A stretch of 64,000 nt of DNA from Eubacteriales bacterium. Lineage in GTDB: Bacteria; Bacillota; Clostridia; Oscillospirales; CAG-382. The stretch is from the NCBI GenBank assembly GCA_045612545.1, contig JAZKZH010000001.1, positions 54,513-118,512 on the forward strand. Reading direction: 5' to 3'. Position numbers and translations under genes: made by a program. The notes under the pieces are model-generated. The model was not told where the DNA came from and did not search any database. It saw nothing but the letters and a program-made list of their open reading frames with translations. This document shows positions 12,887-58,709 of the stretch, one piece after another (position 1 is the first letter of the stretch; the number at the start of each line of letters is the position of its first letter).

Positions 12887-13261
12887 ATGGCAATGGACAA
12901 CGAACACGAAAATATCTTTTCGATACCCGCCAACTATACAGATTCCGGAAAAATACTCGGAGGATTTCTTGAGCCGAGGAATGCAATGGAGACAGCAATA
13001 TTACTGATTCTGGTGGGCTATCCGGAATTGATGATTCCTATGCCCGGCACATTGAGAATCATTGCAATGGCGGTTACGCTGATCCCGCTCGGAATACTGT
13101 CGGCAGTGGGCATCAACGGAGATTCGCTTTTTCAATATGTCGGACATGTAATCCGATTTTTTATAAACAGACGAAAACTACATTTACGAAGGGTGGGATA
13201 CAAATATGATCAAAGGCATTTCCCGAAAAGGAAACGAGCCAAAGCGAAGACAAAAGCCTGA
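12887..13261 (+). CDS. PrgI/VirB3-like small T4SS membrane protein
   Basis: 124 aa with two TM helices and a basic tail, immediately upstream of and overlapping the VirB4-like ATPase gene. Confidence 0.5.
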   Translation: MAMDNEHENIFSIPANYTDSGKILGGFLEPRNAMETAILLILVGYPELMIPMPGTLRIIAMAVTLIPLGILSAVGINGDSLFQYVGHVIRFFINRRKLHLRRVGYKYDQRHFPKRKRAKAKTKA

Positions 13262-17082: not shown

Positions 17083-17170
17083 CCCCAACCGTCGGATCAT
17101 TTTTTCGCCAATCGTCGGATTTATTTTCCGCCAATCATCGGAAAAATATTTCGCCAATTGCCGGAAAAGC
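17083..17170 (+). repeat. Four tandem 23-bp direct repeats (CGCCAAT-CGTCGGA type)
   Basis: Cores GTCGGA 17091, GTCGGA 17114, ATCGGA 17137 and GCCGGA 17160 sit at an exact 23-bp period. The array ends 1 nt before a -35 hexamer. Confidence 0.85.
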
Positions 17171-31505: not shown

Positions 31506-31766
31506 ATAAGCGTGGCAGGAGCTTGCGTTCAGGCTCTCGATACGCTCATAGTTCAGCGTCAGACTTGACCTTTGCAAAAGGCAGGAAATCGTTACGGATC
31601 TGTGCACAGAACAAGATCCACAATAACGCAAGCGACGATATATAGCCGGAAGGCTGCTTAAATACTTACAGAGTCAATTGGTTGGATGAGACGAATATTC
31701 CAACGCTTTGGCTCTGTTTGTTTTTGCAGTTCTTCCGGCTTTTCTTTTTTGAAATCGGAGGAGAAA

Positions 31767-33285: not shown

Positions 33286-33336
33286 GAAATCTCGTCGAAG
33301 CAACCAAAATTCGGCTAATCGTCGAAAAATATGGCG
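33286..33336 (+). repeat. TCGTCGA-type repeat motif upstream of the recombinase promoter
   Basis: CTCGTCGAAG (33291-33300) and ATCGTCGAAAAATATGGCG (33318-33336). The second copy closely matches the copies at 17.1, 35.7 and 37.9 kb. Confidence 0.7.
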
Positions 33337-33341
33337 TAAAT

Positions 33342-33370
33342 GTAGCACAGGCAGAAAAAAACAGTATAAT
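33342..33370 (+). promoter_or_regulatory. Putative activator-dependent promoter of the recombinase gene
   Basis: TATAAT at 33365-33370 with a weak -35 (GTAGCA) 17 nt upstream. The repeat motif ends 6 nt upstream of the -35. Confidence 0.45.
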
Positions 33371-33409: not shown

Positions 33410-34246
33410 GTGAGAAGAATAACAGAAATACAGGTCAATACGTTTCTGGCACAGCTTCGCGATGAAGAAAAAAGCGAAGCAACAATCGAGAAATACCGAA
33501 GAGACGTTTATTGTTTCAGGGACTTTATTGGCGAAGAACCGATCGACAAGCAAAGCTGCATGAAATACAAAGCGTACATCAGTGAAAAATATGCTGTTGC
33601 AAGTGTCAACTCGATGATCGCTTCCCTGAATTCGTTTTTTAAATTCTGCGGCTGGTACGACTGTTGTCTAAGGCAACTACGTGTTCAAAAGCGTGTATTT
33701 TGCTGTGAAGAAAAAGAGCTGAGCAAAGCGGAATACACCAGGCTTATCCATACGGCAAGATTCCAAAGGAATGAACGACTGTATTATTTGTTGCAAACAA
33801 TCTGCAGTACCGGCATACGAGTCAGCGAATTAAAATTTATCACGGTGGAAGCCGTGCGAAAGGGCCTCGCGATCATTCAGTGCAAGGGAAAGACGAGGGA
33901 AATTCTGATCGTATCCGATCTGAAAAAGTGCCTTTTGAAGTATGTCCGCAAAATAGGTCTGGAGTCTGGATCTATCTTTGTTACAAAATCCGGGAAGCCG
34001 ATCGATCGTTCAAACATCTGGCGAGAAATGAAGGCGCTGTGTAAAAAAGCAAAAGTTTCTGAGAAAAAAGTGTTTCCCCACAACCTTCGACATCTTTTTG
34101 CAAGGCTTTTCTATAAAATAGAAAAAGACATCGCAAAGCTTGCGGATGTCTTGGGGCATTCCAGTATTAACACCACTCGAATCTATATTATTTCAACCGG
34201 CTCCGAACATCGAAGAACAATGGAACATATGCACTTGATTTTATAA
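33410..34246 (+). CDS. Tyrosine site-specific recombinase (XerC/XerD-like, short form)
   Basis: 278 aa with GIRVSEL (Arg), HNLRHLFA (His-x-x-Arg), LGHSSINTTRIY (His…Tyr), and a SAM-like N-terminal core-binding domain. Confidence 0.85.
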   Translation: MRRITEIQVNTFLAQLRDEEKSEATIEKYRRDVYCFRDFIGEEPIDKQSCMKYKAYISEKYAVASVNSMIASLNSFFKFCGWYDCCLRQLRVQKRVFCCEEKELSKAEYTRLIHTARFQRNERLYYLLQTICSTGIRVSELKFITVEAVRKGLAIIQCKGKTREILIVSDLKKCLLKYVRKIGLESGSIFVTKSGKPIDRSNIWREMKALCKKAKVSEKKVFPHNLRHLFARLFYKIEKDIAKLADVLGHSSINTTRIYIISTGSEHRRTMEHMHLIL

Positions 34247-34248
34247 TG

Positions 34249-34268
34249 CAACATAATTAGCATTATGT
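34249..34268. repeat. Left inverted repeat of the candidate invertible segment
   Basis: CAACATAATTAGCATTATGT, starting 3 nt after the recombinase stop codon. It is the perfect reverse complement of 34461-34480. Confidence 0.9.
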
Positions 34269-34305
34269 GCTATAACACGATATGATACCAATATTTTCCG
34301 CTTCC

Positions 34306-34334
34306 ATTATACCAATTAAAAGCAATAAAGTCAA
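34306..34334 (-). promoter_or_regulatory. Consensus sigma-A promoter inside the IR-bounded segment, currently pointing toward the recombinase gene
   Basis: Minus strand TTGACT (34329-34334), 17-nt spacer, TATAAT (34306-34311). Confidence 0.6.
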
Positions 34335-34460
34335 GTTATCATACAGCGAAAACTCAAGCAAATAACTAATTTTTGCATGGCAAAAAGCCCTTTGAAAAAA
34401 AGAGCTGTTAAAAAACACAAATTTAATGTTTTACAGAATACGTCTATGTTTATTCGTACA

Positions 34461-34480
34461 ACATAATGCTAATTATGTTG
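34461..34480. repeat. Right inverted repeat of the candidate invertible segment
   Basis: ACATAATGCTAATTATGTTG, the reverse complement of 34249-34268, lying 20 nt upstream of the XRE gene start. Confidence 0.9.
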
Positions 34481-34500
34481 TATTATTGGAGGAATGAATC

Positions 34501-34863
34501 ATGAAGCATTTGCGTGAACTGCGCGACTTAACAGGGACACCCCCAAAAATGCTTTCCAAGCTTTTGAACGTAACCGTGCACACCTATATAGCGTTCGAAC
34601 AAAAAAGAATGACTTTAACCCCCGAGATTATTGTAATGCTCTCCATGATGTACCATGTAGACAAACAAATGATCACCGGGGAGCTGAGTATCGACAACAA
34701 TACGCGGATCCAATTGTCGGTGATTGGCGAGATGGGCGAAGAAGAAAAGCTAACCTTTTACGCTGAGCGATTGTTGGGCAAGCACATCAAACCTACCGGA
34801 AAAAATATCCGCGACAAGAAAAAAGAAATTGAAGACGCGCTGTTCGAAAAGCGTGGAAGATAG
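34501..34863 (+). CDS. XRE-family helix-turn-helix transcriptional regulator
   Basis: 120 aa. The N-terminal LRELRDLTGTPPKMLSKLLNVTVHTYIAFEQKR is HTH-like. RBS GGAGG. Confidence 0.7.
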   Translation: MKHLRELRDLTGTPPKMLSKLLNVTVHTYIAFEQKRMTLTPEIIVMLSMMYHVDKQMITGELSIDNNTRIQLSVIGEMGEEEKLTFYAERLLGKHIKPTGKNIRDKKKEIEDALFEKRGR

Positions 34864-34924: not shown

Positions 34925-35065
34925 TTATTTGCGGAATGCATCCATTGCGCTAGGGGTCTCAGGCTGGTAGAAGAAGGAAGCGCAAGCAGAATTTGCTGCG
35001 AAGATGCCTACAGCCAATGCCAGTGCGGGAAGAGTAGATGCGAGTTTTGCGAAAAATTTCTTCAT
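34925..35065 (-). CDS. agrD: AgrD-like autoinducing peptide precursor (46 aa, absent from the ORF track because it is under 60 aa)
   Basis: MKKFFAKLASTLPALALAVGIFAANSACASFFYQPETPSAMDAFRK. Amphipathic leader, Cys + 4 residues (CASFF), then a YQPETP tail. Its ATG overlaps the agrB stop (ATGA). Confidence 0.7.
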   Translation of the reverse strand: MKKFFAKLASTLPALALAVGIFAANSACASFFYQPETPSAMDAFRK

Positions 35066-35679
35066 GGGTTTTGTTTCTCCTTTGTTTGTTGTATTTTAGC
35101 ACTCAAAAGAGCGAATGCTGCAGAGAAGATACCGAGGGAAAAGCTCAATATGTATGTACTGAGTTGTGTTGCAAACAAAACGAGGACTGCCACTATTATG
35201 GGAATAATATATGCGTATACGCAACACATTTTTCTGAATCGTTTGCGTTCTGTTTTGATAAACGGTTTATTTGGATGATCGATTGGCGCAAAAATCAACA
35301 GAAGCACCGAAGATATCAAGATGGCTACTACAGAAGCAACAGGATGATGCTCTTGAGGTAGAAAGACGATCAGAAGTATAAACAGAACCTGATTCAGCAA
35401 AGAAAGCAAATGACACACAGAATAGGTTGCAGCGTGATATCCTCCAGCAATTGAACGTGTAGTAAAAAAGGCAACGCCGAACAACAGAGAATAGAAAATC
35501 GTTCCGGTAAAAACCGCTAGGACAACAAAAAGCAAAATATATGCCACATACGAAAGAAGGATTTCAAAACCATAGCAATACACGTCACGTTGTTGGGGTT
35601 CAATAATTCCCGATTTTACAAATTTGTCAGTTAAAACACTTGAAAGTTTCTTATACAAATGAAAAACTCCTTCCAACAT
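35062..35679 (-). CDS. agrB: AgrB-family AIP-processing membrane peptidase
   Basis: 205 aa, polytopic, with RSIAGGYHAATYSVCHLLS carrying the conserved His/Cys pair region. Confidence 0.85.
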   Translation of the reverse strand: MLEGVFHLYKKLSSVLTDKFVKSGIIEPQQRDVYCYGFEILLSYVAYILLFVVLAVFTGTIFYSLLFGVAFFTTRSIAGGYHAATYSVCHLLSLLNQVLFILLIVFLPQEHHPVASVVAILISSVLLLIFAPIDHPNKPFIKTERKRFRKMCCVYAYIIPIIVAVLVLFATQLSTYILSFSLGIFSAAFALLSAKIQQTKEKQNP

Positions 35680-35693
35680 GATTGAACAAGTAC

Positions 35694-35723
35694 ATTATCA
35701 ATCTTAATGGAAGGAGTTGTCAA
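35694..35723 (-). promoter_or_regulatory. Possible agrBD promoter
   Basis: Minus strand TTGACA (35718-35723), 17 nt, TGATAA(T) (35694-35700). The leader to the agrB ATG would be very short and no SD is visible. Confidence 0.4.
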
Positions 35724-35730
35724 CAGATAT

Positions 35731-35762
35731 CCCCTATTCGTCGAAAAAATCGCCTCAATCGT
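35731..35762. repeat. TCGTCGA-type repeat motif between the kinase stop and the agrB promoter
   Basis: CCCCTATTCGTCGAAAAAATCGCCTCAATCGT, which aligns with the reverse complement of 37841-37880 over ~28 positions. Confidence 0.75.
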
Positions 35763-37062
35763 TGCGCTGCGGGCAGAAGTTGCTTAAAATAATAGATGTC
35801 GTGAATTCCTCCTCAGAGCATAAGAACGTAACATCTCCATTATATCTCTCGGAAAGTTGCTTCATGCTAATGATTCCGTAACCATGCATCGAAGACTTCT
35901 CCTTTGTTGTACGAAGATTAGCAACATCGACTTTTTTCTCTACAGGATTCTTGATAGTAATAACTATTGACTTATTTTTAATTGTTACCACTAAACGAAT
36001 TGTTTTCCTCGTGTAGTCCGAAACATTCGCAGTGGCCTCAATGGCATTATCTAGCGCATTACCAAGGATGACAGAAAAATCGATTGCCGGTAATACAAGT
36101 TGCTCAGAACATCTATATTCAAAGTCAATACAGATGCCATTCTTTTTTGCAATTTCATTTTTGATAGCCACGAGCAAGCGTACTATATCATTTGGCTTCT
36201 CCGTCATATCATTTAAAAAAGCGTTTTCTGACTCGAGCTTATTTACAACCGTTTCTATATTTCCAGTTTGTAACTCCGCTAAAACGCCAATGCAGAAATT
36301 TTTTTGATCATGACGCAATTTTACAACTTCAGAATGATGCTCTATTACAGCTTCATATTGCTTGGTCTGTTGAGAGATAATTTCATTTGCCGCATTTATT
36401 TTTGTTTCGTAGATAGTATTTTTATAAAGCGTATCAATGAATTCGAAAATTAGTATATTAGCAATAATTAAAAGAGAATAGCAAACAAGCACTAAAACAG
36501 AAATAAAGTCGCTTTGACCCGGCGAATAAACAAAAATACCATGTTGCAATAAAATGATAGCTAAAGTGGCAAAAGGATAAACAAAAACAGTGAAATTACC
36601 TTTTTGAACGATTTGAAACAATGCTTTTTTTCGTTTGAGTTTTATCGAAATAATCAATATAAACATGAGAAATTTCGATAAAAGCATCCCCGAAATAAAC
36701 AAAACCCCTTCTTTTATCATTGTTAATTCCACATGAAAAAGCCACGACATTAAAAACGCCACAATCATCTCAATGGCAGCAATGATGACAAAAAATATCA
36801 TTGTACATAAAACTCTGCTGAGGAATTTAGCTTGATATAAGTATGACAAACAAAAGGATAGGACTAGCAAAGCCAAATATTGTATAGCCGATCCTTTAAA
36901 GCACAGCAAAAACGGGGTGCATATCACACTGGTAACCACGAGCACACCAATCGAAATATATGAACGATAAAGTTTTTGCCAAAAACAATCAAAGAGCCAG
37001 TATGCTAGAAAAAAATGAAGAAACGCATTAACAAATTCTGTGACAATATTCAAAAACAACAT
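35755..37062 (-). CDS. agrC: AgrC-like sensor histidine kinase (GHKL ATPase, HPK10-type)
   Basis: 435 aa. ~6 N-terminal TM helices, a coiled linker, and ATPase motifs GNALDNAIEA and HGYGIISMKQL. Confidence 0.85.
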   Translation of the reverse strand: MLFLNIVTEFVNAFLHFFLAYWLFDCFWQKLYRSYISIGVLVVTSVICTPFLLCFKGSAIQYLALLVLSFCLSYLYQAKFLSRVLCTMIFFVIIAAIEMIVAFLMSWLFHVELTMIKEGVLFISGMLLSKFLMFILIISIKLKRKKALFQIVQKGNFTVFVYPFATLAIILLQHGIFVYSPGQSDFISVLVLVCYSLLIIANILIFEFIDTLYKNTIYETKINAANEIISQQTKQYEAVIEHHSEVVKLRHDQKNFCIGVLAELQTGNIETVVNKLESENAFLNDMTEKPNDIVRLLVAIKNEIAKKNGICIDFEYRCSEQLVLPAIDFSVILGNALDNAIEATANVSDYTRKTIRLVVTIKNKSIVITIKNPVEKKVDVANLRTTKEKSSMHGYGIISMKQLSERYNGDVTFLCSEEEFTTSIILSNFCPQRND

Positions 37063-37063
37063 T

Positions 37064-37765
37064 TTATCGAACCTCTATATACTGAGCATATGCAGTCAGC
37101 ACTTCCGAACGTTTTCTGACGCTGACGGGAACAGCTTCATCGTTGCAAAGGATAGCGGAATACTTATCGAAATGGCTAATCTTATCTAAATTAACAATAT
37201 ATCCTTGATGGACTTGCAGGAATCCGAAATTGCGCAAGCTTTTGTACGCCTCTGCCAAAGTTCCGAGGGTAGTGTATTTCTTGTTTTTCAAGTGATAAAT
37301 CACGTGTTTTTGGCAGCATTCGACATAGTAAATGTCTTTACACCGCAGGCGAATAAATTCCGTTTTGATTTTGATAATATGGAACTGATTGCTTTCACGG
37401 TAGCGCAAAATCAAGCGCTGCAAAACATTCGTTGCTTTTCCCACACAAAGCGGCTTTATCAAATAGTGAAACGCATGGCAGTCATAGCCTTCCAATGCGT
37501 ATTGTGGATAACTGGTCACAAATACGATCTCCGTTTGAGGACTCTTGCTTTTAACCAGCTTCCCCAATTCAATTCCGTTCATCCCGGGCATGTCGACGTC
37601 CAGGAATACAACATCGTACATACGTCCACTTCTTATGGCCCGAGACATTTCCAAGCTGGAGGTAAAGGGGTCCACCTTATATTCCATTTCTCCCATATTG
37701 TCGATGATTGTTTTATGAATCGCTTCAACATCGGGTTTCGAATCATCACAGATCGCAAAATACAT
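37064..37765 (-). CDS. agrA: LytTR-family response regulator (AgrA-like)
   Basis: Receiver domain (FLDVDMPGMNG) plus a C-terminal LytTR DNA-binding domain (IYYVE…QVHQGYIVNL). Confidence 0.9.
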   Translation of the reverse strand: MYFAICDDSKPDVEAIHKTIIDNMGEMEYKVDPFTSSLEMSRAIRSGRMYDVVFLDVDMPGMNGIELGKLVKSKSPQTEIVFVTSYPQYALEGYDCHAFHYLIKPLCVGKATNVLQRLILRYRESNQFHIIKIKTEFIRLRCKDIYYVECCQKHVIYHLKNKKYTTLGTLAEAYKSLRNFGFLQVHQGYIVNLDKISHFDKYSAILCNDEAVPVSVRKRSEVLTAYAQYIEVR

Positions 37766-37798
37766 GATTGAATTACCATCCTTTTTTGTTTCGGTTTT

Positions 37799-37827
37799 AT
37801 TATATCATATCTTTATTTCGTTTTCAA
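37799..37827 (-). promoter_or_regulatory. Promoter of the response-regulator/kinase operon
   Basis: Minus strand TTGAAA (37822-37827), 17 nt, TATAAT (37799-37804). Confidence 0.6.
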
Positions 37828-37840
37828 CAACCCGCAACAT

Positions 37841-37880
37841 GGTTTTTTCGACAATGAGGCGAGTTTTTTCGACGAATGGG
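37841..37880 (-). repeat. Two TCGTCGA-type direct repeats (21-bp period) upstream of the regulator promoter
   Basis: Minus strand CCCATTCGTCGAAAAAACTCGCCTCATTGTCGAAAAAACC, ending 13 nt upstream of the -35. Confidence 0.8.
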
Positions 37881-37973
37881 CTTTTGAAGTTGTTATTATT
37901 TGCGGATGCTATATAATGAATACAATTAAGGAAAGATATTTATTTCTTCACCTGAAAAATCATTTGGGACGAG

Positions 37974-39755
37974 GTGATTGTATTGCTCGATTTTACCACA
38001 TTGAAACTTCCGCCAATAGTAGTTTTTAATTGTTTTAAAACAAGTAATCTCCCCCATCAAGTTTCACGGGCGTACCCCATTGAACTCTTTAAAGATGAGA
38101 TTAAAGATTTGTTGCAACGTGGCTATGTTTCGATTTCTATCAAACAGCTATGCGAGTTTGCCAAGAATCAATTACCGGTTCCACCAAAACGATTTTGCAT
38201 TGCTTTTTTTGGCGGCTATATCGACAACCACACCATCGTATTTCCCGTTTTAAGAGAACTCGGAATTCATGCGGACCTTTTTATGGCAAATAATTTGGCA
38301 GGCTACACCGAATGTCCCGGCGTATCAAATTTCACTCCACATTACAGTTGGGAGCATGCAAAAGAAATGCACGAGAGTGGCTTGGTGGATATTTATAGTC
38401 TATGGCATCCCTTTGACAACGGGAAAGATCTGGAGCTAACCATTGCGGAAAAGATTCAACAGATTTCAGATCAACTCCCGGGAAGCGAACCCAACTCCTC
38501 TTTTTGGATCAACACAGATACGGACTTGAAAAACAAGCTGAATGCATTGTCCAATGCCAATGTATCATCATATCTGTATCCGGTCTTAAGCACCACGCAA
38601 AAGCGCTTGAAAAATGGCGGTTTACCGTACATCGAGGTTTCAACGGAAAAAGGTCTCATGGCGGCAATGGAATATTTTGATGAGGTGTATAATCGCCTTA
38701 CGCAAAGAGAACTGGCACTTCGTGATAAGGAGAAAGACATCTTCAAGTGGTCTCCCGAGAAACGTGAAACCCTTGTTTTACCGATTGACAAAAATCCTAT
38801 GGCAAGGAACTATCTGCGGCACGCCATTCCCCTGAGTGTAATCGGCGCAGACAGAAAAGAGCTGGCGGAGCTAGTGGTTCTCAACGACTACATTGAAGTT
38901 GTTTTTCGACCATGGTATCACTGGTTTGATTACGATAACTATCTCTATGATACCTGGAATACTTTGGTGTGCAATGTTCTGAACCGCGATATTGTGGAAG
39001 CCAATGAGATCAATATTGCTGAATCAATCATTAAAGGGCTTGCGAAAGGCTACTATGCCGACGTTTGGATGGATTCCTACTACATTCCAGGCAAACCTGC
39101 CTATCAAAAAATACATCTAGCACACAATATTCTGATCTATGGCTACGATGCGGAAAAAGACAAGTTCTTATCGCTGACTTATACCAAAAGCGATCATTAC
39201 GAAGATCTGGAAATCTCTCCAGTGCACATGCTTCAAGCGTGCTCCACGGAGTATTTTATGAGGGTGTGTTTTTTGAAGCGGAATAAAGAGTCCTGCATTC
39301 TGTACAATCCCAATCATCTCTTACAAAAATTAAAGCGATATATCCACTCGGATTATGAGCCCGGAAATTACAACCGTTATACCTCGTATGATGTAAACCA
39401 GCATATAAATTATAATGCTTGCTTGGCATTCCCAGATTATCTCCGGGATATTGCGCATAAGGAGCATAAAATCTATCCGGTTACTCTGTACAGCTATACG
39501 GAGCATAAGCGCTGTATGGCGTGGAGGTTGCATTATATTGCTCGCCGAGAAGGACTGGACATCTCCCCTTTCACGGAATACGAATCATTCACCAATCGGA
39601 CCTGTTCGTTGATTCTTTCTTTGGGGATGAAATACAACCTTACCCGAAACGATCATATCATTCAGGAAATGCAAAGTTACATTGTAGAGTGCAATGAAAA
39701 GGAATTTCGAACTATAGAAGAATTATTGGATTCATTAGAAGAACAAAAAACATAA
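37974..39755 (+). CDS. Hypothetical two-domain protein with an N-terminal polysaccharide-deacetylase-like region
   Basis: 593 aa with a GTG start. FCIAFFGGYIDNHTIVFPVLRELGIHADLFM and WEHAKEMHESG resemble the NodB fold, but the usual Asp-Asp is FG. The C-terminal ~300 aa is unrecognised. Confidence 0.5.
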   Translation: MIVLLDFTTLKLPPIVVFNCFKTSNLPHQVSRAYPIELFKDEIKDLLQRGYVSISIKQLCEFAKNQLPVPPKRFCIAFFGGYIDNHTIVFPVLRELGIHADLFMANNLAGYTECPGVSNFTPHYSWEHAKEMHESGLVDIYSLWHPFDNGKDLELTIAEKIQQISDQLPGSEPNSSFWINTDTDLKNKLNALSNANVSSYLYPVLSTTQKRLKNGGLPYIEVSTEKGLMAAMEYFDEVYNRLTQRELALRDKEKDIFKWSPEKRETLVLPIDKNPMARNYLRHAIPLSVIGADRKELAELVVLNDYIEVVFRPWYHWFDYDNYLYDTWNTLVCNVLNRDIVEANEINIAESIIKGLAKGYYADVWMDSYYIPGKPAYQKIHLAHNILIYGYDAEKDKFLSLTYTKSDHYEDLEISPVHMLQACSTEYFMRVCFLKRNKESCILYNPNHLLQKLKRYIHSDYEPGNYNRYTSYDVNQHINYNACLAFPDYLRDIAHKEHKIYPVTLYSYTEHKRCMAWRLHYIARREGLDISPFTEYESFTNRTCSLILSLGMKYNLTRNDHIIQEMQSYIVECNEKEFRTIEELLDSLEEQKT

Positions 39756-39778
39756 TAAACATAAAAACGGAGGACACT

Positions 39779-40933
39779 ATGAAACTCACTAAGAAGACGC
39801 TTATCCTTTTCGCAGTCATGACCGCATTGATCGCCACTATGATCGTAACTGCTGTTGCAGACACCACACCCTCGTTAACGTACTTAAACCCGGTTTCAAC
39901 CAACCTCAGTTCCACGCCATTGGAGGAGTATTCCGGAGTTACCCCCTTGACATTTACTAGGAATAACCGTCCGATCGTCTACACCAACTATCCCGAACAG
40001 ATCGGCGCTAACGGGAAATGCATGCCCTTTGCAGAGGATGGCTATTGTGTCAATCAACAGGTAATTACTGCCGGTGAAGCCCATGTGTTTTTCTCCCACT
40101 GGAACCGTAGCGGAAGCGCCATCAAGTACCGTATTCACGTGTTCAATATGTCTGTAGGCTCTACAACGGTCAATGTATCCAATATCGGCTTCAGCAGCGG
40201 ATGGTCTGATCCCGGCGAAACCGTAAAGCAGTTCTTTACGACCAGTGGGAATCAGATGACTTTGGCACAAGGCGCATCCGGATGGCTGTCTCCCGAATAC
40301 ACCATTGCCAACAATCAGCCTTTTAACGGCCTTATTCGCTTTACTTGTAGCCAAGCTGTTATCGTGACAGTGTACATGTATCATGACGTTAGTGCCATCG
40401 ACGGTTACGAAGTTGTCTATCCTTATGATGCAGAACATTCCGATGATCTGCAGGTGTATTCCGGCGTTGGTAACGGCTATTTCTTGAGTGCGGCTCATGG
40501 CACTATCAAGCTCAGCGAAATGCCCTACCGATATGTAACACATAAGGCGAATGCAAACGAAAACGAAATCACAGCAATCAATATTGCAGGAACAAATCTG
40601 CAGGCGAACGAGGATGCAGCGTACCCTCTGAACAATCTCGGCAACTGGTGCACGCAATATTACCACACCATGACTCTCGTAAACGATACCAACGAAACCA
40701 AGACTGTTTACGGATATATTGGCAGTAACGCAATTGGCAATACGGTTGTGGTACAGCGAGGCACCAATGTGCAAAGCGCACGTCTTGAGAACGGTGATCG
40801 CACTTGGAAGTGGTGCGAAATTGTTCTCGAACCCGGGCAGTCGTATACCTTCGATTACCAAACGATTCTTGCTTCTTACGGTGCGGCTGTAACTTTCCAC
40901 GAGTGGAGTCTTGTTGACCGTATGGGTGATTAA
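39779..40933 (+). CDS. Secreted protein of unknown function (paralog of 40964-42877)
   Basis: Signal peptide (…VTAVA/DT). Shares YxNxPEQxG, VxFxHxN…VxNxG and NxxNW blocks with the next gene. Confidence 0.6.
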   Translation: MKLTKKTLILFAVMTALIATMIVTAVADTTPSLTYLNPVSTNLSSTPLEEYSGVTPLTFTRNNRPIVYTNYPEQIGANGKCMPFAEDGYCVNQQVITAGEAHVFFSHWNRSGSAIKYRIHVFNMSVGSTTVNVSNIGFSSGWSDPGETVKQFFTTSGNQMTLAQGASGWLSPEYTIANNQPFNGLIRFTCSQAVIVTVYMYHDVSAIDGYEVVYPYDAEHSDDLQVYSGVGNGYFLSAAHGTIKLSEMPYRYVTHKANANENEITAINIAGTNLQANEDAAYPLNNLGNWCTQYYHTMTLVNDTNETKTVYGYIGSNAIGNTVVVQRGTNVQSARLENGDRTWKWCEIVLEPGQSYTFDYQTILASYGAAVTFHEWSLVDRMGD

Positions 40934-40963
40934 GTTTCGATAACAAGCAGTTGGAGATTTGGA

Positions 40964-42877
40964 ATGAAGACAACCAAGTATATCAAACCAATCGCTTTGA
41001 TGATGGTGGTAATTATGCTTTTGACAACATTAGGTGCATGTTCTGAAGAGCTGACCGACCATTCTTCGGCCGAAAGCGCAAGTAGTCAAGTCGGGGTATC
41101 TACTGACACTAGCGAGAGTAACGCAGAAAGCTCTGAAAATTCTGCGGAATCATCCCTGCCAGAGGACAGCTCCGTTCCTTCCAACGAAAGTTCCGAGGAA
41201 ACCAGCGGCGAAAACTCTCTTCCTGACGAGCCTACGCCTCCCGACAATCCTGTGGAAGAGCTTGACGGTTTTCGTCTTTCCTCCATTGACGACGTGACGG
41301 GTGAGGATGGGAAGCGTGTCTACACGGTTCACGCGCCCTATACGGACACCTATTCCCTGGTTGGGGACGGGGTGAAGGAGATCACGCTGCTGCAGGACGG
41401 CGAAGAAATCGCTTCCGGTACGGAGCTTTCCGTGAGTTTGGAGCAATACGCCGTTTACACCCTGGAGGTGGAGACGGAGGAAGCGGGGGCGGATTTCAAG
41501 ATCACCACCAAGGCGGAGAATCATTTGGTGACCCTCCCCTACGGGGTGGCGGGGGCTGTGGATGCCTCGCAGTTTGACGTTTACGGCAACGACAAGCTTA
41601 CCGCCGCAGAGGTGAATTACATCAAGCGCAAGGGCGGGACTTACATCTATTCCAACAATCCCGAGCAGTTCGGCTCCCAGCACGTGGGACAGGCCTTTAT
41701 GCGGAACGAGGGGTTGGCGGGCGAGGTGTACGTGACCTTTGAGCACGCCAACTACGCAGGGCGGGACGTGTATTTGGGGTATCAGCTGAAGAATAATACC
41801 GACCACGACGTGTATATCACCGTCACCAACGTGGGGTATCAATGGATCGGCACTTGGTTCGGTCAGTTGGCGTGGTATGATTTTTACAATACGTCCTTTA
41901 AGCTGCCCGGGGATTATCTGAACGCATACGGCGGCATTACTTCCAAGTATGCGCATTTGGACTATGCGTATAAGAAGTATGAGCCCAGAGTGTATCAGCC
42001 CACCACTTACCGCTTGCCTGCGGGTGAGTATTTCTGGGTGATCGGGGGAACCTCTGCGGATGCCTACAGAAACATCAACGTGGATAACTCCGCCAACCAC
42101 TACGTGAACAACATCCGCTGTGCCAACGGCAACGTGAAGTTTACCGTCACAGGCGGCGAGGTGACGGGCACCATGTACTGCTACACCAATGCGGAGCAGG
42201 TGGCAAAGGAGCCCAAGGCCTTGGGTTACGTGGCGGGGAATTACGCACAGCAGTATTCCGGTATTGCCCACCATCATGGTGTCATCGACAACTACATGGA
42301 GTGGACCTTTGGGGATGATGACAAGGCGGGGAGACTGCCCGTGACCTACACCAACTGCTATGCGGATTACGTGTCCTCCGTGGGGTCGCCCTACAAGGAA
42401 TACAACAATAAGGATCACGTGGTGAACGGCACCACCTGGATGACCCATCTGAACCCGCAGAACAACCACCAGGCGGTGGGAATGGATATGGTGGAGTTTA
42501 TCTGGCACGCTTCCAACGGGGCGGAGATCGTCATTGACAATTATCACGCAGACGGCTCCGGTGCACCTGCCAACACGGCAAACTGGATGATCGAGTATCA
42601 GGACCATTTCACCTTCATCAATCAGGGAGATCAGGACAGGACAATCACCTTGCATTTGCGTGATCACGGTACCTTGGCGATCCTTGTCCGTGACAGCTTG
42701 ACGGGTGAGGTCTTGGAGGCTTCCTACACGGCGGGGCTTGGCGAAAACAGCGGTGTGTTCAGCAATTACAAGTATGTACTTACCGTGCCTGCACACAGCG
42801 TACAGCAGGTGACCTTGGATTATCTGTTGGTGGCTTGTTCTTACGGCAGTGTGATCCATGCGGTGGAGATGAAATAG
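40964..42877 (+). CDS. Lipoprotein of unknown function (larger paralog of 39779-40933)
   Basis: Lipobox LTTLGAC, Ser/Glu-rich linker, then a G+C-rich body with the same conserved blocks as the upstream gene. Confidence 0.65.
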   Translation: MKTTKYIKPIALMMVVIMLLTTLGACSEELTDHSSAESASSQVGVSTDTSESNAESSENSAESSLPEDSSVPSNESSEETSGENSLPDEPTPPDNPVEELDGFRLSSIDDVTGEDGKRVYTVHAPYTDTYSLVGDGVKEITLLQDGEEIASGTELSVSLEQYAVYTLEVETEEAGADFKITTKAENHLVTLPYGVAGAVDASQFDVYGNDKLTAAEVNYIKRKGGTYIYSNNPEQFGSQHVGQAFMRNEGLAGEVYVTFEHANYAGRDVYLGYQLKNNTDHDVYITVTNVGYQWIGTWFGQLAWYDFYNTSFKLPGDYLNAYGGITSKYAHLDYAYKKYEPRVYQPTTYRLPAGEYFWVIGGTSADAYRNINVDNSANHYVNNIRCANGNVKFTVTGGEVTGTMYCYTNAEQVAKEPKALGYVAGNYAQQYSGIAHHHGVIDNYMEWTFGDDDKAGRLPVTYTNCYADYVSSVGSPYKEYNNKDHVVNGTTWMTHLNPQNNHQAVGMDMVEFIWHASNGAEIVIDNYHADGSGAPANTANWMIEYQDHFTFINQGDQDRTITLHLRDHGTLAILVRDSLTGEVLEASYTAGLGENSGVFSNYKYVLTVPAHSVQQVTLDYLLVACSYGSVIHAVEMK

Positions 42878-42927: not shown

Positions 42928-42963
42928 CGAGGTGCAACACAATAAGTTGCACTTCGTTTTTTC
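42928..42963 (+). terminator. Intrinsic terminator
   Basis: 11-bp stem CGAGGTGCAAC / GTTGCACTTCG followed by TTTTTT. Confidence 0.75.
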
Positions 42964-43146
42964 AATAAGATCACGATTCGGCCATTTTTTTAGCCGAAGG
43001 CGCCCTAACGCTTGCATTCTCTTTTTTCGGGTGTTATCATACGTATATCAATGGTTGGTTCGTTGTTGATAAGTTTGATGATTTTTTGCACAGAGGGAGT
43101 ATCGTTTATCGGTACTCCCTCTGTGTTTTTTCTTTTTATGGTCAAA

Positions 43147-43770
43147 TTATTCGCCACAAGTAGAACTGGATAGAACATCAAAGCCAAGATAGCTGCTGAG
43201 TTTTTTCGTATAGCGTTGCGTTTGCAATTCATCTTCTGCGTAACCCGGGATCATTTTATACAACAAATGGTTCGCAAGCATATAGCCATAAAAATGCGCA
43301 AGCTTTGTTCCGTGGTCCTCCAACAAAATGAAATAACTTGCGAGGTCTTCATATATGGCTTTCTGCTCCTCGGTCATGGCTTCATATACACTTCGCAGTT
43401 TGGAAGCGGTTTGAACCGAAATTGGCATATTCCTCATGACGAATTCGTTCAGATATTGCTCTGGTTCGTCGAACTGTACGGGCGATAAGGAATTCTTTAC
43501 GAAATTATCTTTGTTTGCTTGGAAGCCGAGATGTCCCGCAAAAAGCATACTCGCGGCAATTGATTTTTCGCGCAGTTCAATCACTTCGCTGATGATCGTC
43601 TCGGAAGTATCACCCGTCCCTTCAAACTCTTGAAGCCTTTTCAGGTACTGCTTTTCTGCTTCTGTATAATCATTGCACCGTTCGCTTAGGTATCTTTTCA
43701 GTTCCTCGATGAGAAGCGAATCAATAAATTGCGGCTTAGAGATAAACTCTGCAATATTTTTCATTTCCAT
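43147..43770 (-). CDS. Hypothetical helical protein (family recurs as two decayed copies at 50.0 and 56.5 kb)
   Basis: ATG 43770 follows AAGGAG (207 aa). The C-terminal part (MTEEQKAIYEDL…FYGYMLANHLL) resembles the small genes at 50008 and 56465. Confidence 0.5.
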   Translation of the reverse strand: MEMKNIAEFISKPQFIDSLLIEELKRYLSERCNDYTEAEKQYLKRLQEFEGTGDTSETIISEVIELREKSIAASMLFAGHLGFQANKDNFVKNSLSPVQFDEPEQYLNEFVMRNMPISVQTASKLRSVYEAMTEEQKAIYEDLASYFILLEDHGTKLAHFYGYMLANHLLYKMIPGYAEDELQTQRYTKKLSSYLGFDVLSSSTCGE

Positions 43771-43991
43771 TAAATATCTCCTTATTTTAAATTGCGTAAC
43801 AACCTTACACGGGATGTTTTTTTGTAAAAGTCCCTCCCCTCTTGCGACTCCCTCTGTTTGTGTATTTGTTGCGCTACAAGAGAATTTTACCATAAGAAAA
43901 CAAAGAATTATGTCGAAGTACGCTGTCGAATAAAATTTTGTTTTGACAAAAAAGAGCCGACAAAACGTCAGCTCCGGATTAACAAAACAAC

Positions 43992-44312
43992 TTATAAATA
44001 CTTTACGTATGTATCGATCATTTCTGCTACGCATTCGCGCTGCTTGGGGGTAAGTGTCTCGAGTTTATCTGTCAGATCGTCATATATGACATGCTTTCCT
44101 GCAGAGATCTCGCCTCGCAAAATAAAGTCTGCAGAAACATCCAATTTTTCAACAATGACGATAAACAAGCCCAAGCTGGGAAACTTCACCCCACGCTCAA
44201 TATCGCACAAATAGGAAGGCCCAATATTCGCCAATTCGGCTAACGCCTCTTGCGTCATACCACGCAATCGCCGCGCTTCCTTGATTCGTTCGCCCATAGT
44301 CGTCTTATTCAA
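43992..44312 (-). CDS. XRE-family HTH transcriptional regulator
   Basis: MGERIKEARRLRGMTQEALAELANIGPSYLCDIERG is a classic Cro/C1-type HTH. Confidence 0.8.
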   Translation of the reverse strand: MNKTTMGERIKEARRLRGMTQEALAELANIGPSYLCDIERGVKFPSLGLFIVIVEKLDVSADFILRGEISAGKHVIYDDLTDKLETLTPKQRECVAEMIDTYVKYL

Positions 44313-45068: not shown

Positions 45069-45577
45069 GACAATTATTTCTGTAAAAACAGGAAATCCGC
45101 CCACTCACTATTTGTTTGAGCCAAGCACAGCATTTTTCTCGTTACTTAATGTAACGAACGGGGGAATGTTTTCAACGAATAATCACCTATACTTGACTAT
45201 GCAGAAAAGAATCCATAAGATAGTACTTGAAGTTTGTCAATTCCAAAGCACACAGCAATTACACGCTGGAAAAGGAGTCTTGAGAAAGATGAAGCGATGA
45301 ATTAAACTTACTAATACCGAACGAAAGTCTATTCTTGTTCCTGCAGCAAGAGTTACGTGGGCGTTGCTGGTTTCGTAGATATCCGGACGTATATTGATTA
45401 TGCTATATACACTAACAATTTTTGCGGCCATTATTCGCTCATAGTTATAGCTATTGCAATATTGATGCTTGATCTTGCACTCACTATCAAACAAATATCC
45501 CTCAATAGCTAGTCACTAAATAGTCCCTTATAGCTTCAATTATTAACCACTCTAAATAAACTTAGGAGAGTATTTTA

Positions 45578-46468
45578 ATGAGGAAAATTACTTTTTTGAT
45601 TTTACTTGTTGCATTTATTGCATTATGTCTTTGCCTTGCAAGTTGCAACGACGATACAAATAGCAATGACCCTAACACAAGTTACATCATAGCTTCTGAC
45701 CCAGTGGAAAGCTATGATAATGTTTCGATATATTTTCCAGATAACGATAGGTCTGATGAAGAAGAAACTGTATCTACCGAAGGAAGCGAAGAAGAACCAA
45801 GCGAAATCAACGGATTCATTATCAAAGAAAAGAAATTCGATTTTGGGAGCAACAACGTTGTTCTCTTGAACGTGGAAAACAAGACGGCCCAAGACTACAC
45901 GCTGACTGTGAATGGAACGTATTTTGATCAAAATGGCAACGTGTTGAAGACCGACATACAATCGTTCGAGGATTTTGTTGCAGGCTATCAGGGGTATTTT
46001 CTGTTCAATCCGGAAATAGCATTCGACACTTTTAGCTTTACACTATCGTATAACTACTTTTCAGGCAAGCCTAGACTTTCAAATGTAAAACTTTTACAGT
46101 GGAATAAAGAGACTGCATTTTTCATGGTGTGGCAAGAACAATTGATTGAACTGGCAGGAATTGATGACACAATTTACAATACACTTTCTACAAATTACAA
46201 ATTTATTAATGAAAATGATGTTACCTTGCACATCAAGCGAGTTATGATTGCAATCGACAGCAACGATGAAATCATTTCCATTAAGCCGTTTGGATATGAG
46301 AAAGTAGCTCCTCGCGCATTTGGCGGAGGTACATTCCGGTTGTACCATACTTTGGATCCATTGACAAAAGATTCTCAAACTTGGCCTAAACACCTGCAGG
46401 GAGAAATTCAGTTAATCATGATACCAGTGGATGCCTTAACAGAAGAGGAGTATTCAGAATTGTCCTAA
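45578..46468 (+). CDS. Lipoprotein of unknown function
   Basis: Signal peptide plus lipobox LCLASC. 296 aa. Confidence 0.6.
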   Translation: MRKITFLILLVAFIALCLCLASCNDDTNSNDPNTSYIIASDPVESYDNVSIYFPDNDRSDEEETVSTEGSEEEPSEINGFIIKEKKFDFGSNNVVLLNVENKTAQDYTLTVNGTYFDQNGNVLKTDIQSFEDFVAGYQGYFLFNPEIAFDTFSFTLSYNYFSGKPRLSNVKLLQWNKETAFFMVWQEQLIELAGIDDTIYNTLSTNYKFINENDVTLHIKRVMIAIDSNDEIISIKPFGYEKVAPRAFGGGTFRLYHTLDPLTKDSQTWPKHLQGEIQLIMIPVDALTEEEYSELS

Positions 46469-46519: not shown

Positions 46520-46762
46520 ATGAAAAGAACAATCAAACTTATCAACTCTGAACGTTCCACCCCTTACGTAAACTCTAAAAAAGCAACCGTCTGCGAAGAA
46601 GGATCTTACGATTACTGCGTTTACATTGACGAGGCCAATTGCACAGGACTTTCGTATGATGTGTGCAACAAAGACAATGCCGCTTGTTACGAAGCAGGAT
46701 ACGATTACTGCACCAACTATAGAGATACCGATGCTTGCGGGGCATCTCGCGACTATAACTAA
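46520..46762 (+). CDS. Small Cys/Asp/Tyr-rich peptide (80 aa) with a regular Cx7C spacing; candidate RiPP precursor
   Basis: AAGGAG RBS. A hydrophilic 24-aa N-terminus without signal peptide is followed by seven Cys mostly 8 residues apart (C25, 33, 41, 49, 56, 64, 73), each followed by Asp within 3-6 residues. Confidence 0.55.
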   Translation: MKRTIKLINSERSTPYVNSKKATVCEEGSYDYCVYIDEANCTGLSYDVCNKDNAACYEAGYDYCTNYRDTDACGASRDYN

Positions 46763-56748: not shown

Positions 56749-57152
56749 GAGCCAAAAAGTCATATCCTATATAACTCGTAAAAATGGGGGGCTGTATAAT
56801 GAATCCCCATAAAAAAGTCTCCCCCCCCCTAAAACCACATTTGCTTTTTACCAATACGTTTCTGGAATCTACATACTCTGTTGTAGTTCTATGATCATTA
56901 TTTTGCCACATCCTACGCCTTCATATAAGCACCTATGAATAAGTTTATTAACTCATTTCACTATACGACTATGTTTACATCGCAACAAATCGATAACAAT
57001 TTTATGTGTTCATTCTCGCTTTGTTATAATCAAACACATACGAACTTGAAGACAACTATCGCACACAAATCCTTGCCATTTAATTACAACTATACCCACG
57101 GAACCACACTAACACGAAGGGGGCGAAATATGCAACGAACAAGAAAGGCCAA

Positions 57153-57181
57153 TTGACACGCTTTTGTCGGGAAGTTAATAT
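57153..57181 (+). promoter_or_regulatory. Promoter of the ligase-ACP-rSAM cluster
   Basis: TTGACA (57153-57158), 17 nt, TAATAT (57176-57181). Confidence 0.5.
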
Positions 57182-57239: not shown

Positions 57240-58709
57240 ATGAAAATTGCAGATCGTTTAAAAGAAAAGCAGTACTGCAAGAATGTGGCAGTAGTAGATG
57301 GTACCGTTCAGCTGACATACCAAGACTTGCACAAAAAAGCCTCCACCCTCTCCCAGGTGCTCGCATTTGTATCCAACCGGCGGGAGCACGTGGCAATACT
57401 CCTCCCCAATTCAGCCAACTATGTTGTCGCATACTGTTCTGTTTTGCTGGCCGGAGATGTAGTTGTTCCAATCTACTTCAAGGCAACCGGCGAAGAGATT
57501 AAAAACTCCGTTGAATATTGCGACACAAACATTCTAATCACCGACACCGAAAACTTTGACCGTGTTGAGAATATAGCATTCGATCATCAAGTTGTGGTTA
57601 TCAACATTGATACACTCTCAATGATCGGTTTAGGCAAATGTGGAATCCGTGCCAACCCTCAAAGCCCTCCTCACGTGGCCGTCATGTTAGGAACCTCCGG
57701 AAGCACCAGCACCCCCAAAAGAGTCATGCTTTCCGATGAGAACCTGATTGAAAATGCCGTTGGAATCATTCACTCGTTGCAGTACACCCAGGATGAGCGC
57801 TTCCTGTGTCTTTTGCCGATGACGTTTGCTTCCGGCAATACTTCTCAGCTGGTCGTTTCTCTTTTGCTGACTTCAACCCTGTATATTTATCACGGCCCGT
57901 TGCACCCTAAATTCATTTTCGACTGCATTAAATGCAACCACATCACCAGCACCACGATTGTCCCTTCGGTTCTGAAAGTGCTGTTTTCCGATGGAAAAGA
58001 CTATTCAAGCGAGTGCCCCTCATTGAAAACTATCTGCTTCGGCGGCGGACCAACAGATGACCTTACCATCAGTAAAATTGTAAACAGCCCCATGCGAGAT
58101 AAATTCGTTCAGATGTATGGGCAGACAGAAGCTTCCACAAGAATATCTCATTTGAACTATAGCAAAGACCACGACAAACCCACTTCTGCAGGAAAACCTC
58201 TTTTCAATGTGCAAGTTGCAGTGAAACGGAAGGACAACGTGGAATTCGAAAACGATCTTGTTCCGGGCGAAATTTTAGTCAAAGGTCCAAATGTTATGGT
58301 GGGGTATTACAAGGAAACCAACTCCCCTATTATCAACGGATGGCTGGCTACAGGTGACGTAGGCTATATTGCTCCCGGCGACTACATCTATATTACAGGA
58401 CGAAAAAAGAACATCATTATTTGTTCCGGCATGAACATTCAAGCAGAAGAGGTAGAAAACATTCTTCTGCAACACCCCGGTGTTTCCGAAGCGTTGGTAT
58501 TTGGAATCGATGACTTTGCCCATGGTGAATTGCCGTGTGCGGAAGTCGTTCTTAAGCAAGAGGCAACTGTAGGAGAAAAAGAGTTGAAAGCTTTTTGCGC
58601 CCGGCATCTCTCTGATTATAAAATCCCGGCGCATATTAAGTTCGTAGAAAAACTCGAGCGCACATACAACGGCAAAATTGCCAGAAAAAAGGAGACAAAA
58701 CATGAGTGA
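57240..58709 (+). CDS. Acyl-AMP/CoA ligase (AMP-dependent synthetase family)
   Basis: ATG 57240 follows AGGGAG. MLGTSGSTSTPKRVMLS, YGQTE, TGDVGY and a GRKKN motif. Confidence 0.9.
   Translation: MKIADRLKEKQYCKNVAVVDGTVQLTYQDLHKKASTLSQVLAFVSNRREHVAILLPNSANYVVAYCSVLLAGDVVVPIYFKATGEEIKNSVEYCDTNILITDTENFDRVENIAFDHQVVVINIDTLSMIGLGKCGIRANPQSPPHVAVMLGTSGSTSTPKRVMLSDENLIENAVGIIHSLQYTQDERFLCLLPMTFASGNTSQLVVSLLLTSTLYIYHGPLHPKFIFDCIKCNHITSTTIVPSVLKVLFSDGKDYSSECPSLKTICFGGGPTDDLTISKIVNSPMRDKFVQMYGQTEASTRISHLNYSKDHDKPTSAGKPLFNVQVAVKRKDNVEFENDLVPGEILVKGPNVMVGYYKETNSPIINGWLATGDVGYIAPGDYIYITGRKKNIIICSGMNIQAEEVENILLQHPGVSEALVFGIDDFAHGELPCAEVVLKQEATVGEKELKAFCARHLSDYKIPAHIKFVEKLERTYNGKIARKKETKHE

Follow-up and report, generated by a model that had tools for sequence, protein, structure and literature searches.

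Comparison with described agr and LytTR systems

The agr system of Staphylococcus aureus has a small direct regulon that includes the regulatory RNA RNAIII. Its LytTR response regulator, AgrA, recognizes pairs of direct repeats immediately upstream of the promoters P2 and P3 and autoactivates the system (PMC4227749). In Clostridioides difficile, the LytTR regulator RgaR is an activator of agrB1D1 and of the small RNA SpoZ, and the direct repeats through which it acts have a critical G at positions -51 and -72 (PMC10602386). A comparable arrangement is described here for a stretch of 64,000 nucleotides (nt), referred to as the window, from an Eubacteriales bacterium (GTDB lineage Bacteria; Bacillota; Clostridia; Oscillospirales; CAG-382; GenBank assembly GCA_045612545.1, contig JAZKZH010000001.1, positions 54,513 to 118,512 of the forward strand). 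The window holds an agr-like module, and paired repeats lie at both of its promoters. Judged by their sequence, spacing, promoter geometry, conservation and co-variation, these repeats are very likely the boxes to which the LytTR response regulator encoded in the module binds.

The likeness to S. aureus AgrA consists of a LytTR regulator of an AgrBDCA system, a direct-repeat pair upstream of the -35 element and a predicted autoactivation (PMC4227749). The differences are more numerous. The box reads ATTCGTyG here and ACAGTTAAG in S. aureus; the two are unrelated, in agreement with an earlier note on this DNA which had held the sequence to differ from the staphylococcal type. The gene order is regulator, kinase, agrB and agrD with an internal promoter, whereas S. 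aureus agrBDCA is transcribed from one promoter. The box pair upstream of the regulator gene (site A) has promoters on both flanks, while P2 and P3 each have a pair of their own. The spacers between the -35 and -10 elements are optimal here (16-18 nt) and suboptimal in S. aureus and, unlike S. aureus agr, the module adjoins conjugation genes. A small direct regulon with an RNA among its members, as in S. aureus, is a further point of likeness.

The RgaS-RgaR system and the VirS-VirR system of Clostridium perfringens, with its VirR boxes, also have a clostridial LytTR regulator that serves a handful of promoters through two direct repeats. The G positions predicted here are the same as those of RgaR, and agrBD and a short non-coding transcript are once more among the predicted targets. 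In contrast, the box differs from the VirR-like consensus, and RgaS-RgaR and VirS-VirR are orphan pairs encoded elsewhere in the genome, whereas the kinase and regulator of the window lie beside agrBD. RgaR and VirR act on sporulation or toxin genes; here, the predicted targets are operons of the peptide or secondary-metabolite type. The window system is described from its sequence. On balance, the system would work like S. aureus AgrA at P2 and P3, and still more like clostridial RgaR and VirR.

Streptococcal ComE and BlpR resemble the window system in having direct repeats at a fixed distance from the -35 element and in serving peptide biosynthesis and export operons beside the signalling genes. 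In Streptococcus mutans, two divergent genes are both affected by one ComE site that lies between them. Unlike the cyclic peptide of an AgrB/AgrD pair, the streptococcal signal is a linear peptide exported by an ABC transporter, and the box sequence and the hosts are different. In Paenibacillus polymyxa, agr-type peptide signals (Pp-AIPs) are described as controlling secondary-metabolite or antibiotic operons (PMC12180512). The metabolite link in the window differs from this case in being predicted from box promoters, and the module differs in lying beside genes of a conjugative element.

The agr module and the box pairs at its promoters

The agr set of the window is complete at one locus, with AgrB, AgrD, a HATPase_c_5 kinase and a LytTR regulator, all encoded on the minus strand. 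The AgrA-like response regulator (37064-37765, 233 amino acids (aa)) matches the Pfam families Response_reg (5e-16) and LytTR (6.5e-19), and a tblastn search identified no second LytTR protein in the window. It is followed by an AgrC-like GHKL histidine kinase (35755-37062, 435 aa; HATPase_c_5, 6.2e-23), which is co-linear with the regulator in all relatives, by an AgrB peptidase (35062-35679, 205 aa as listed; AgrB, 1.9e-34) and by an AgrD precursor of 46 aa (34925-35065), recognized from its translation MKKFFAKLASTLPALALAVGIFAANSACASFFYQPETPSAMDAFRK.

The sequence CCCCTATTCGTCGAAAAAATCGCCTCAATCGT is present at 35731-35762 on the plus strand. The sequence CCCATTCGTCGAAAAAACTCGCCTCATTGTCGAAAAAACC is present on the minus strand of 37841-37880, and its two cores (37876 and 37855) are spaced by exactly 21 bp. 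Both sequences had been quoted in the earlier note, and they were confirmed at their positions, as were the 21-bp pair and the distance of 13 nt from the second motif to the TTGAAA-17-TATAAT promoter. The first motif does lie upstream of the agrBD -35 element; its distance, given there as 8 nt, is 7 nt for the motif as drawn. The spans drawn in that note differ slightly from the 34-column sites that are used below. Site A (37848-37881, minus strand, matrix score 34.0) consists of the boxes ATTCGTCG and cATTGTCG, 21 bp apart, with promoters on both flanks. Site B (35732-35765, plus strand, matrix score 34.1) consists of the boxes ATTCGTCG and AATCGTTG, with cores at 35737 and 35758, and overlaps the stop codon of the kinase gene. 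As the agr genes all have the same strand, the minus strand, the two sites are inverted relative to each other, and site B is inverted relative to agrB transcription.

Three promoters are associated with these two sites. The agrBD promoter (35694-35723, minus strand) comprises TTGACA (35723-35718), 18 nt and GATAAT (35699-35694), and its -35 element is 12 nt from the proximal box, a distance that is identical in loci L164, L165, L166, L169, L172 and L175. On the plus strand, a divergent promoter (37890-37917) comprises TTGTTA (37890-37895), 16 nt and TATAAT (37912-37917). Its -35 element is also 12 nt from the proximal box of site A, and it drives an operon beginning with a BtrH_N-like gene (37974-42877). 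The regulator/kinase promoter (37799-37827, minus strand) comprises TTGAAA (37827-37822), 17 nt and TATAAT (37804-37799). Here, the boxes have the same direction as transcription, and 20 nt separate the proximal box from the -35 element; the corresponding distance is 0 nt in L163, L165, L172 and L175, 10 nt in L001/L171, and again 20 nt in L161. The site is kept at the regulator promoter in L161 and L164, where the divergent -35 element is lacking, which argues that the regulator promoter is also a genuine target. Site A is thus shared, its boxes being reversed toward the regulator/kinase promoter, and it is probable that the regulator modulates its own synthesis as well.

A near-palindromic TCGTCGA core had been proposed as the shared motif, and this description was not borne out. 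The columns conserved across loci are ATTCGT, and the CGA that follows is variable. Since the three bases after CGT vary between loci, the near-palindrome is incidental. The heptamer is also unspecific, with 11 copies in the window, most of them outside of the three box-bearing intergenic regions.

Conservation and co-variation of the boxes

The regulator belongs to a family that is well populated in the protein database (40-83% identity), and contigs were fetched for eleven of its members. The best match had 55% identity among representative genome contigs and 35% among metagenome contigs. Two ATTCGT boxes 21 bp apart are found upstream of the regulator in L001/L171, L161, L163, L164, L165, L172 and L175 (51-83% identity), and, where agrB comes after the kinase gene, an inverted copy of the pair is found upstream of agrB (L164, L165, L172 and L175). 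The DNA around the conserved pairs is otherwise unrelated between loci. A site at the regulator promoter is present in the window and in nine non-redundant relatives. Fifteen sites align without gaps to gCCTATTCGTCGAAAAAAnnnGCCTATTCGTTGn with the boxes in register at 21 bp, and the core C, G and T are invariant in both boxes across this alignment. The box consensus is gCCTATTCGTyG, and the spacing of the pair corresponds to two helical turns. An unbiased self-match scan of 17 promoter regions gave a sole peak at offset 21, with 7.06 of 9 positions matching as compared to about 5.5 in shuffled sequences.

Two loci, L166 and L169, carry a second type of box. Their regulators are 52-54% identical to that of the window, and TGCAyATTCGC boxes are present at both the regulator and agrB promoters with the 21-bp and 12-nt distances retained. 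These boxes have a C at the position where each of the 30 type-1 boxes has a T, and the regulators show distinctive substitutions in the LytTR domain (ECC.KH to EYCRRH, and SVRK to STRK). An alteration of the box at both promoters together points to the LytTR regulator of the locus itself and not to a global factor. The comparison comprises two lineages only, for which a single evolutionary event is possible.

The gene content around the boxes is conserved as well. Regulator, kinase, agrB and agrD are followed on the opposite strand by a gene for a small helix-turn-helix (HTH) protein and a gene for a 278-aa tyrosine recombinase, beyond which conjugation genes such as PcfJ and TraG/VirD4 are found in relatives. 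The opposite flank of the regulator gene is in nearly all cases occupied by a divergent operon of the peptide or secondary-metabolite type, with contents such as radical SAM/SPASM proteins, AMP-binding proteins, a carrier protein, an ABC exporter or an S8 peptidase.

A BtrH_N-like gene is divergent from the regulator also in L163 (79% identical). A comparison of window positions 37974-40933 with positions 1-1927 of L163 gave 79% identity for this gene and 98% for the start of the next gene, while the adjacent regulators are 59% identical. This pattern suggests that target operons and signalling modules are exchanged as separate units.

Promoter grammar and further box promoters

Matches to the 13-mer with up to two mismatches numbered 11 in the window where 4.35 were expected, and none of 100 shuffled sequences reached 11. 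A dimer matrix of 34 columns was then trained solely on other loci, with no window sequence included. In the window, it returned 34.1 (35732-35765), 34.0 (37848-37881), 24.8 (42970-43003), 22.5 (45151-45184) and 16.1 (33313-33346). The maxima of 100 random windows had a mean of 9.6 and a highest value of 21.5, and 1.44 Mb of loci with distant LytTR proteins contained a single match of at least 15.

The promoters share a common geometry. In 16 of 19 sites, exactly 12 nt separate the proximal box from a TTGnnn hexamer, with a -10 element 16-18 nt further on. In the direction of transcription, the grammar may be written as nnACGAAT, 13 nt, nnACGAAT, 12 nt, -35, 16-18 nt and -10. If the start is assumed to be 7 nt after the -10 element, the invariant G is placed at about -51 and -72, which also accords with the location of the AgrA repeats upstream of their promoters (PMC4227749). 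A full promoter model was built from boxes and -35 elements trained on relatives and a generic -10 element. The scores were 43.1 for agrBD, 43.0 for the plus-strand promoter of site A (BtrH_N-like operon, 37974-42877), 31.8 for a site at 45.2 kb (site E), 24.8 for a site at 43.0 kb (site F) and 15.3 for a site at 57.1 kb (site G), as compared to a random maximum of 9.7 and one match of at least 13 in 2.5 Mb of real DNA. With up to one mismatch allowed, agrBD, site E and site G were identified by the strict pattern ACGAA-N16-ACGAA-N13-TTG, or three matches where 0.12 were expected. A sixth match to the full model (13141-13188, score 13.4) was rejected; both of its boxes lack the CGAA core and its -10 element overlaps the start codon of the next gene. 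Each defining feature of a LytTR site that can be assessed in DNA sequence is found at the agr locus, and binding of the regulator is predicted from them.

The earlier note had proposed a regulon that reached beyond the agr promoters. Its extent has to be redrawn, as the divergent operon at site A and the box promoters at 43.0, 45.2 and 57.1 kb had all been missed. Site F (42970-43003, minus strand) reads tCACGATT, 13 nt and agCCGAAG on the plus strand, and its dimer score of 24.8 is above all 100 random windows. It precedes a plus-strand unit (43012-43135) with the -35 element TTGCAT (43012-43017), 17 nt, the -10 element TATCAT (43035-43040) and a predicted start near 43047. The unit ends at a bidirectional terminator with a 17-bp stem (43088-43135), and is located between a terminator at 42932-42952 and the end of the minus-strand gene 43147-44034. 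The predicted product is an RNA of about 90 nt with no complete open reading frame (ORF). Its fold has a free energy of -35.6 kcal/mol (z = -7.6), and Rfam contained no family that matched this RNA or any other part of 42.9-45.6 kb. The terminators that bracket the site F unit are both bidirectional and intrinsic. The first is the end of the 37974-42877 operon, and the second is also the end of gene 43147-44034.

Site E (45151-45184, minus strand, dimer score 22.5) reads TAACGAAC, 13 nt and CAACGAAT on the plus strand and is an exact match to ACGAA-N16-ACGAA-N13-TTG. Its promoter (TTGACT, 17 nt, TAAGAT; 45193-45221, plus strand) leads through a leader of about 350 nt to a lipoprotein-like gene (45578-46468, 296 aa). 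Just 3' of this gene is an 80-aa ORF rich in Cys, Tyr and Asp (46520-46762, plus strand) with no Pfam match; it is possibly within the site E transcription unit and might encode a precursor peptide. Site G (57111-57144, minus strand) reads ACACGAAG, 13 nt and CAACGAAC on the plus strand and also matches the strict pattern exactly. Its promoter (TTGACA, 17 nt, TAATAT; 57153-57181, plus strand) precedes an AMP-binding gene (ATG at 57243) and a cluster with carrier-protein, Rce1-like and radical-SAM genes that extends to about 62.3 kb. In L165, the operon divergent from the regulator box site holds homologs of the site G cluster (60%) together with a homolog of the site E gene (34%). Since the two occur together in one box-driven operon, this arrangement provides independent support for both sites.

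Recombinase promoter and ATPase array

The regulon had also been extended to the tyrosine recombinase gene (33410-34246) at 33.3 kb and to a DUF4143 ATPase gene at 17.1 kb, such that population density would set the recombinase level and thereby the rate of switching. That the same regulator drives both genes is unlikely. Repeat units do exist at 33.3 kb. Site C (33313-33346, plus strand), a doubtful member upstream of the recombinase gene, has one good box, AATCGTCGA, and a poor second box. The good single box, AATCGTCGAAAAA, scores 12.7 bits, the dimer score of 16.1 is at about the 95th percentile of random maxima, and two CGTCGAA heptamers are found within 27 bp in this one intergenic region where the whole window has six. 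In a relative that is 95-96% identical (L298), the good box and the rest of the promoter are unchanged. However, the upstream unit has three changes in the same relative, and the site C units are 27 bp and not 21 bp apart. The full model score of 6.3 is within the random range, and the box is 16 nt from a weak -35 element (GTAGCA), so that neither of the validated promoter geometries fits. No box was found in the orthologous recombinase promoters of L165, L166, L169, L173 and L175, and the family of the recombinase has a much wider distribution than the agr module. The evidence at this promoter therefore leans against control by the regulator, and the density-controlled phase switching that had been built upon it is unsupported for this window.

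The 23-bp repeats at 17.1 kb are likewise real (17085-17165; period 23 and 3.5 copies by TRF), but membership in the regulon is not supported and their kinship to the agr boxes is weak. The units score 6.7, 9.9, 3.2 and below 2 bits. The best of these is at background level, with 26 places in the window reaching at least 9.9, and the invariant CGT is gone from two of the four units. The array is missing from the lists of matrix and promoter-model matches for the window.

The array itself consists of four tandem units (CGCCAATCGTCGGA...) that abut the -35 element of the DUF4143/AAA_14 ATPase gene. No further copies were found elsewhere in the window, and a scan of viral contigs with CGCCAATCGTCGGA gave single chance matches only. 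A plasmid search identified the ATPase coding region in a Bacteroides plasmid, where the array is absent.

A segment of 192 bp between the recombinase gene and the small HTH gene (34243-34486) is bordered by inverted repeats of 26 nt with the core ACAACATAATnnnATTATGT. The ACAACATAATnnnATTATGT repeats are unrelated to the boxes and flank segments of 190-285 bp in L165, L166, L169, L173 and L175. Within the window segment, a TTGACT-17-TATAAT promoter points back into the recombinase gene and away from the HTH gene. L298 and the other relatives have the segment in the same orientation, with no inverted variant among them. The family of the 278-aa recombinase is very large: at E <= 1e-60, at least 7980 clusters match, most of them with about 60-67% identity.

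In the type-2 loci, a box pair with a TTGAAT -35 element at the canonical 12 nt lies within the inverted-repeat-flanked segment and is directed toward the small HTH gene (L166, 4429-4463; L169, 5383-5417). This placement, which speaks for the wider regulon, suggests that the regulator may control the small HTH gene in these lineages. With a type-2 box inside the switch segment, some link between the regulator and this module exists elsewhere, and some lineages may wire the switch to the regulator. It is improbable that the good box at 33317-33329 is a real but non-canonical site and that this family of element-borne agr modules couples density to the recombinase/small-HTH switch. If true, such a coupling would affect promoter inversion or the behavior of the conjugative element.

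Identity of the binding protein

Several points weigh against the assignment of the boxes to the LytTR regulator of the module. The LytTR domain is too diverged from AgrA to be matched in sequence to the solved AgrA-DNA structures for a mapping of base contacts, and ComE is the only solved LytTR regulator among the matches (E = 1.8e-4). The box orientation at the regulator promoter is opposite to that at the other promoters, and the regulator may repress one of these classes, or leave it unaffected, instead of activating it. The transcription starts are predictions throughout, at about 35685 (minus strand) and 37924, 43047, 45229 and 57188 (plus strand). Among the further sites, site F has two core mismatches, and a blastn search of the few relatives that had been fetched found nothing convincing for the site F RNA or for the site E leader. 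Site G has a dimer score of only 6.8 when its boxes are considered by themselves; the low value arises because the A-run of the spacer is absent. Lastly, the sites in relatives were first found by eye with the window motif, which leaves the training set less than fully independent; neither the offset scan nor the geometry nor the agreement in gene content depends on this step.

Another protein of the module, such as the small HTH protein (34501-34863), is a very unlikely candidate for binding to the boxes. Its gene accompanies the agr module in L164, L165, L166, L169, L172 and L175, and a co-variation of boxes by locus would fit any factor that the module encodes. However, L001 and L171 have the boxes and a box-driven divergent promoter, yet no homolog of the small HTH gene is found within their 12-kb contigs. 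Proteins of the HTH_3/XRE type typically bind inverted repeats. The signature of a LytTR regulator is a head-to-tail pair spaced by 21 bp whose critical G residues fall near -51 and -72 (PMC10602386, PMC4227749).

It is highly improbable that the units are 0A boxes (TGNCGAA) through which Spo0A brings sporulation control to this locus. One box sequence, ATTGTCGAAAAAA, is a perfect extended 0A box, and TGNCGAA is matched by one unit of site A (37855-37843) and by two minus-strand units of the 17.1-kb array. Several of the related loci are from metagenome-assembled genomes of Clostridia/Eubacteriales, groups that include spore-formers. On the other hand, the 48 copies of TGNCGAA in the window are at background level. 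The conserved core is ATTCGT while the CGAA part varies (ATTCGTAG, ATTCGTTA, ATTCGTTT), most boxes lack the TG, and the box varies by locus in L166 and L169. Neither a head-to-tail spacing of 21 bp nor a fixed distance to the -35 element is known as a feature of Spo0A sites. Spo0A boxes were rejected on this conservation and co-variation, the boxes not conforming to TGNCGAA.

It is hardly credible that the regulator and kinase genes form a mobile or invertible cassette, with sites A and B as its inverted terminal repeats and the tyrosine recombinase acting upon it: the inverted pair (repeats I2 and I13) flanks exactly the regulator and kinase genes with the recombinase 1.5 kb away, but regulator, kinase, agrB and agrD are co-directional in every relative with no inverted variant seen, solitary sites with full promoter geometry occur at 43.0, 45.2 and 57.1 kb and in L161 and L175, and the recombinase has conserved inverted repeats of its own (ACAACATAATnnnATTATGT) that are unlike the boxes. 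With gene order constant among relatives, the cassette was rejected.

Proposed mechanism

With the LytTR regulator as the protein that binds the boxes, the module may be considered as a density-sensing circuit of the ordinary agr design. AgrB would process AgrD to a secreted cyclic peptide, which the AgrC-like kinase would sense and answer by phosphorylating the regulator. The 46-aa AgrD-like ORF contains ..NSACASFFYQPETP.., in which C-A-S-F-F is predicted, by analogy with known AgrD peptides, to form a ring of five residues that is followed by an acidic tail with proline. In relatives, too, a small ORF is found downstream of agrB, with a length of 46-49 aa. A regulator dimer would then bind the two gCCTATTCGTyG boxes 21 bp apart. 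In the activating arrangement, the invariant G at about -51 and -72 would be at the classic position for a LytTR activator.

As a target, agrBD would provide positive feedback on signal production. The other predicted targets are the BtrH_N-like operon, the non-coding transcript of about 90 nt, the lipoprotein-like gene and the AMP-ligase/carrier-protein/radical-SAM cluster. The proposal that the LytTR regulator autoregulates thus holds up well: the position, the 21-bp spacing and the sequence of the boxes are conserved and the boxes co-vary, and the agr module is very likely autoregulated.

A hairpin with a U-run is located between the kinase gene and agrB (35665-35718, minus strand, inverted repeat I6), with a fold of about -29 kcal/mol. 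The agrB promoter spacer contains its 5' arm, and the ribosome-binding site of agrB makes up its 3' arm. The true agrB start is probably a few codons downstream of the listed one, after a GGAAGGAG ribosome-binding site. An equivalent hairpin of different sequence, with compensatory changes, is present between kinase and agrB in L165, L166, L169, L172 and L175. The hairpin is a probable terminator or insulator against read-through from the regulator operon. Since transcripts from the agrB promoter would lack its 5' arm, it should stop or silence only the read-through. By straddling the agrB promoter, it would keep agrBD dependent on its own box promoter.

Implications

Autoregulation of a LytTR system through paired direct repeats is textbook knowledge, and the mechanism is not a surprising one. 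What is new here is the box sequence, the shared two-sided site, the terminator that overlaps the agrB promoter and the location beside conjugation genes. The boxes and their geometry provide a testable operator sequence and promoter grammar for an uncharacterized clade of agr modules in metagenome assemblies of Clostridia/Eubacteriales, some of which are from human gut, where the modules adjoin conjugation genes and a conserved recombinase. The direct regulon that is predicted comprises signal production, a divergent secreted-protein operon, a short RNA and a peptide/secondary-metabolite cluster. With the grammar in hand, the regulons of related modules can be read from their sequences. Its value is in annotation and as an entry point for experiments.

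Elsewhere in the conjugative-element region, a full-length match to the Rfam DUF3268 RNA is found at 31514-31634 on the plus strand, with 90 bits as compared to a gathering score of 65.3. In L298, a gene for a DUF3268 protein is present in the corresponding neighborhood.

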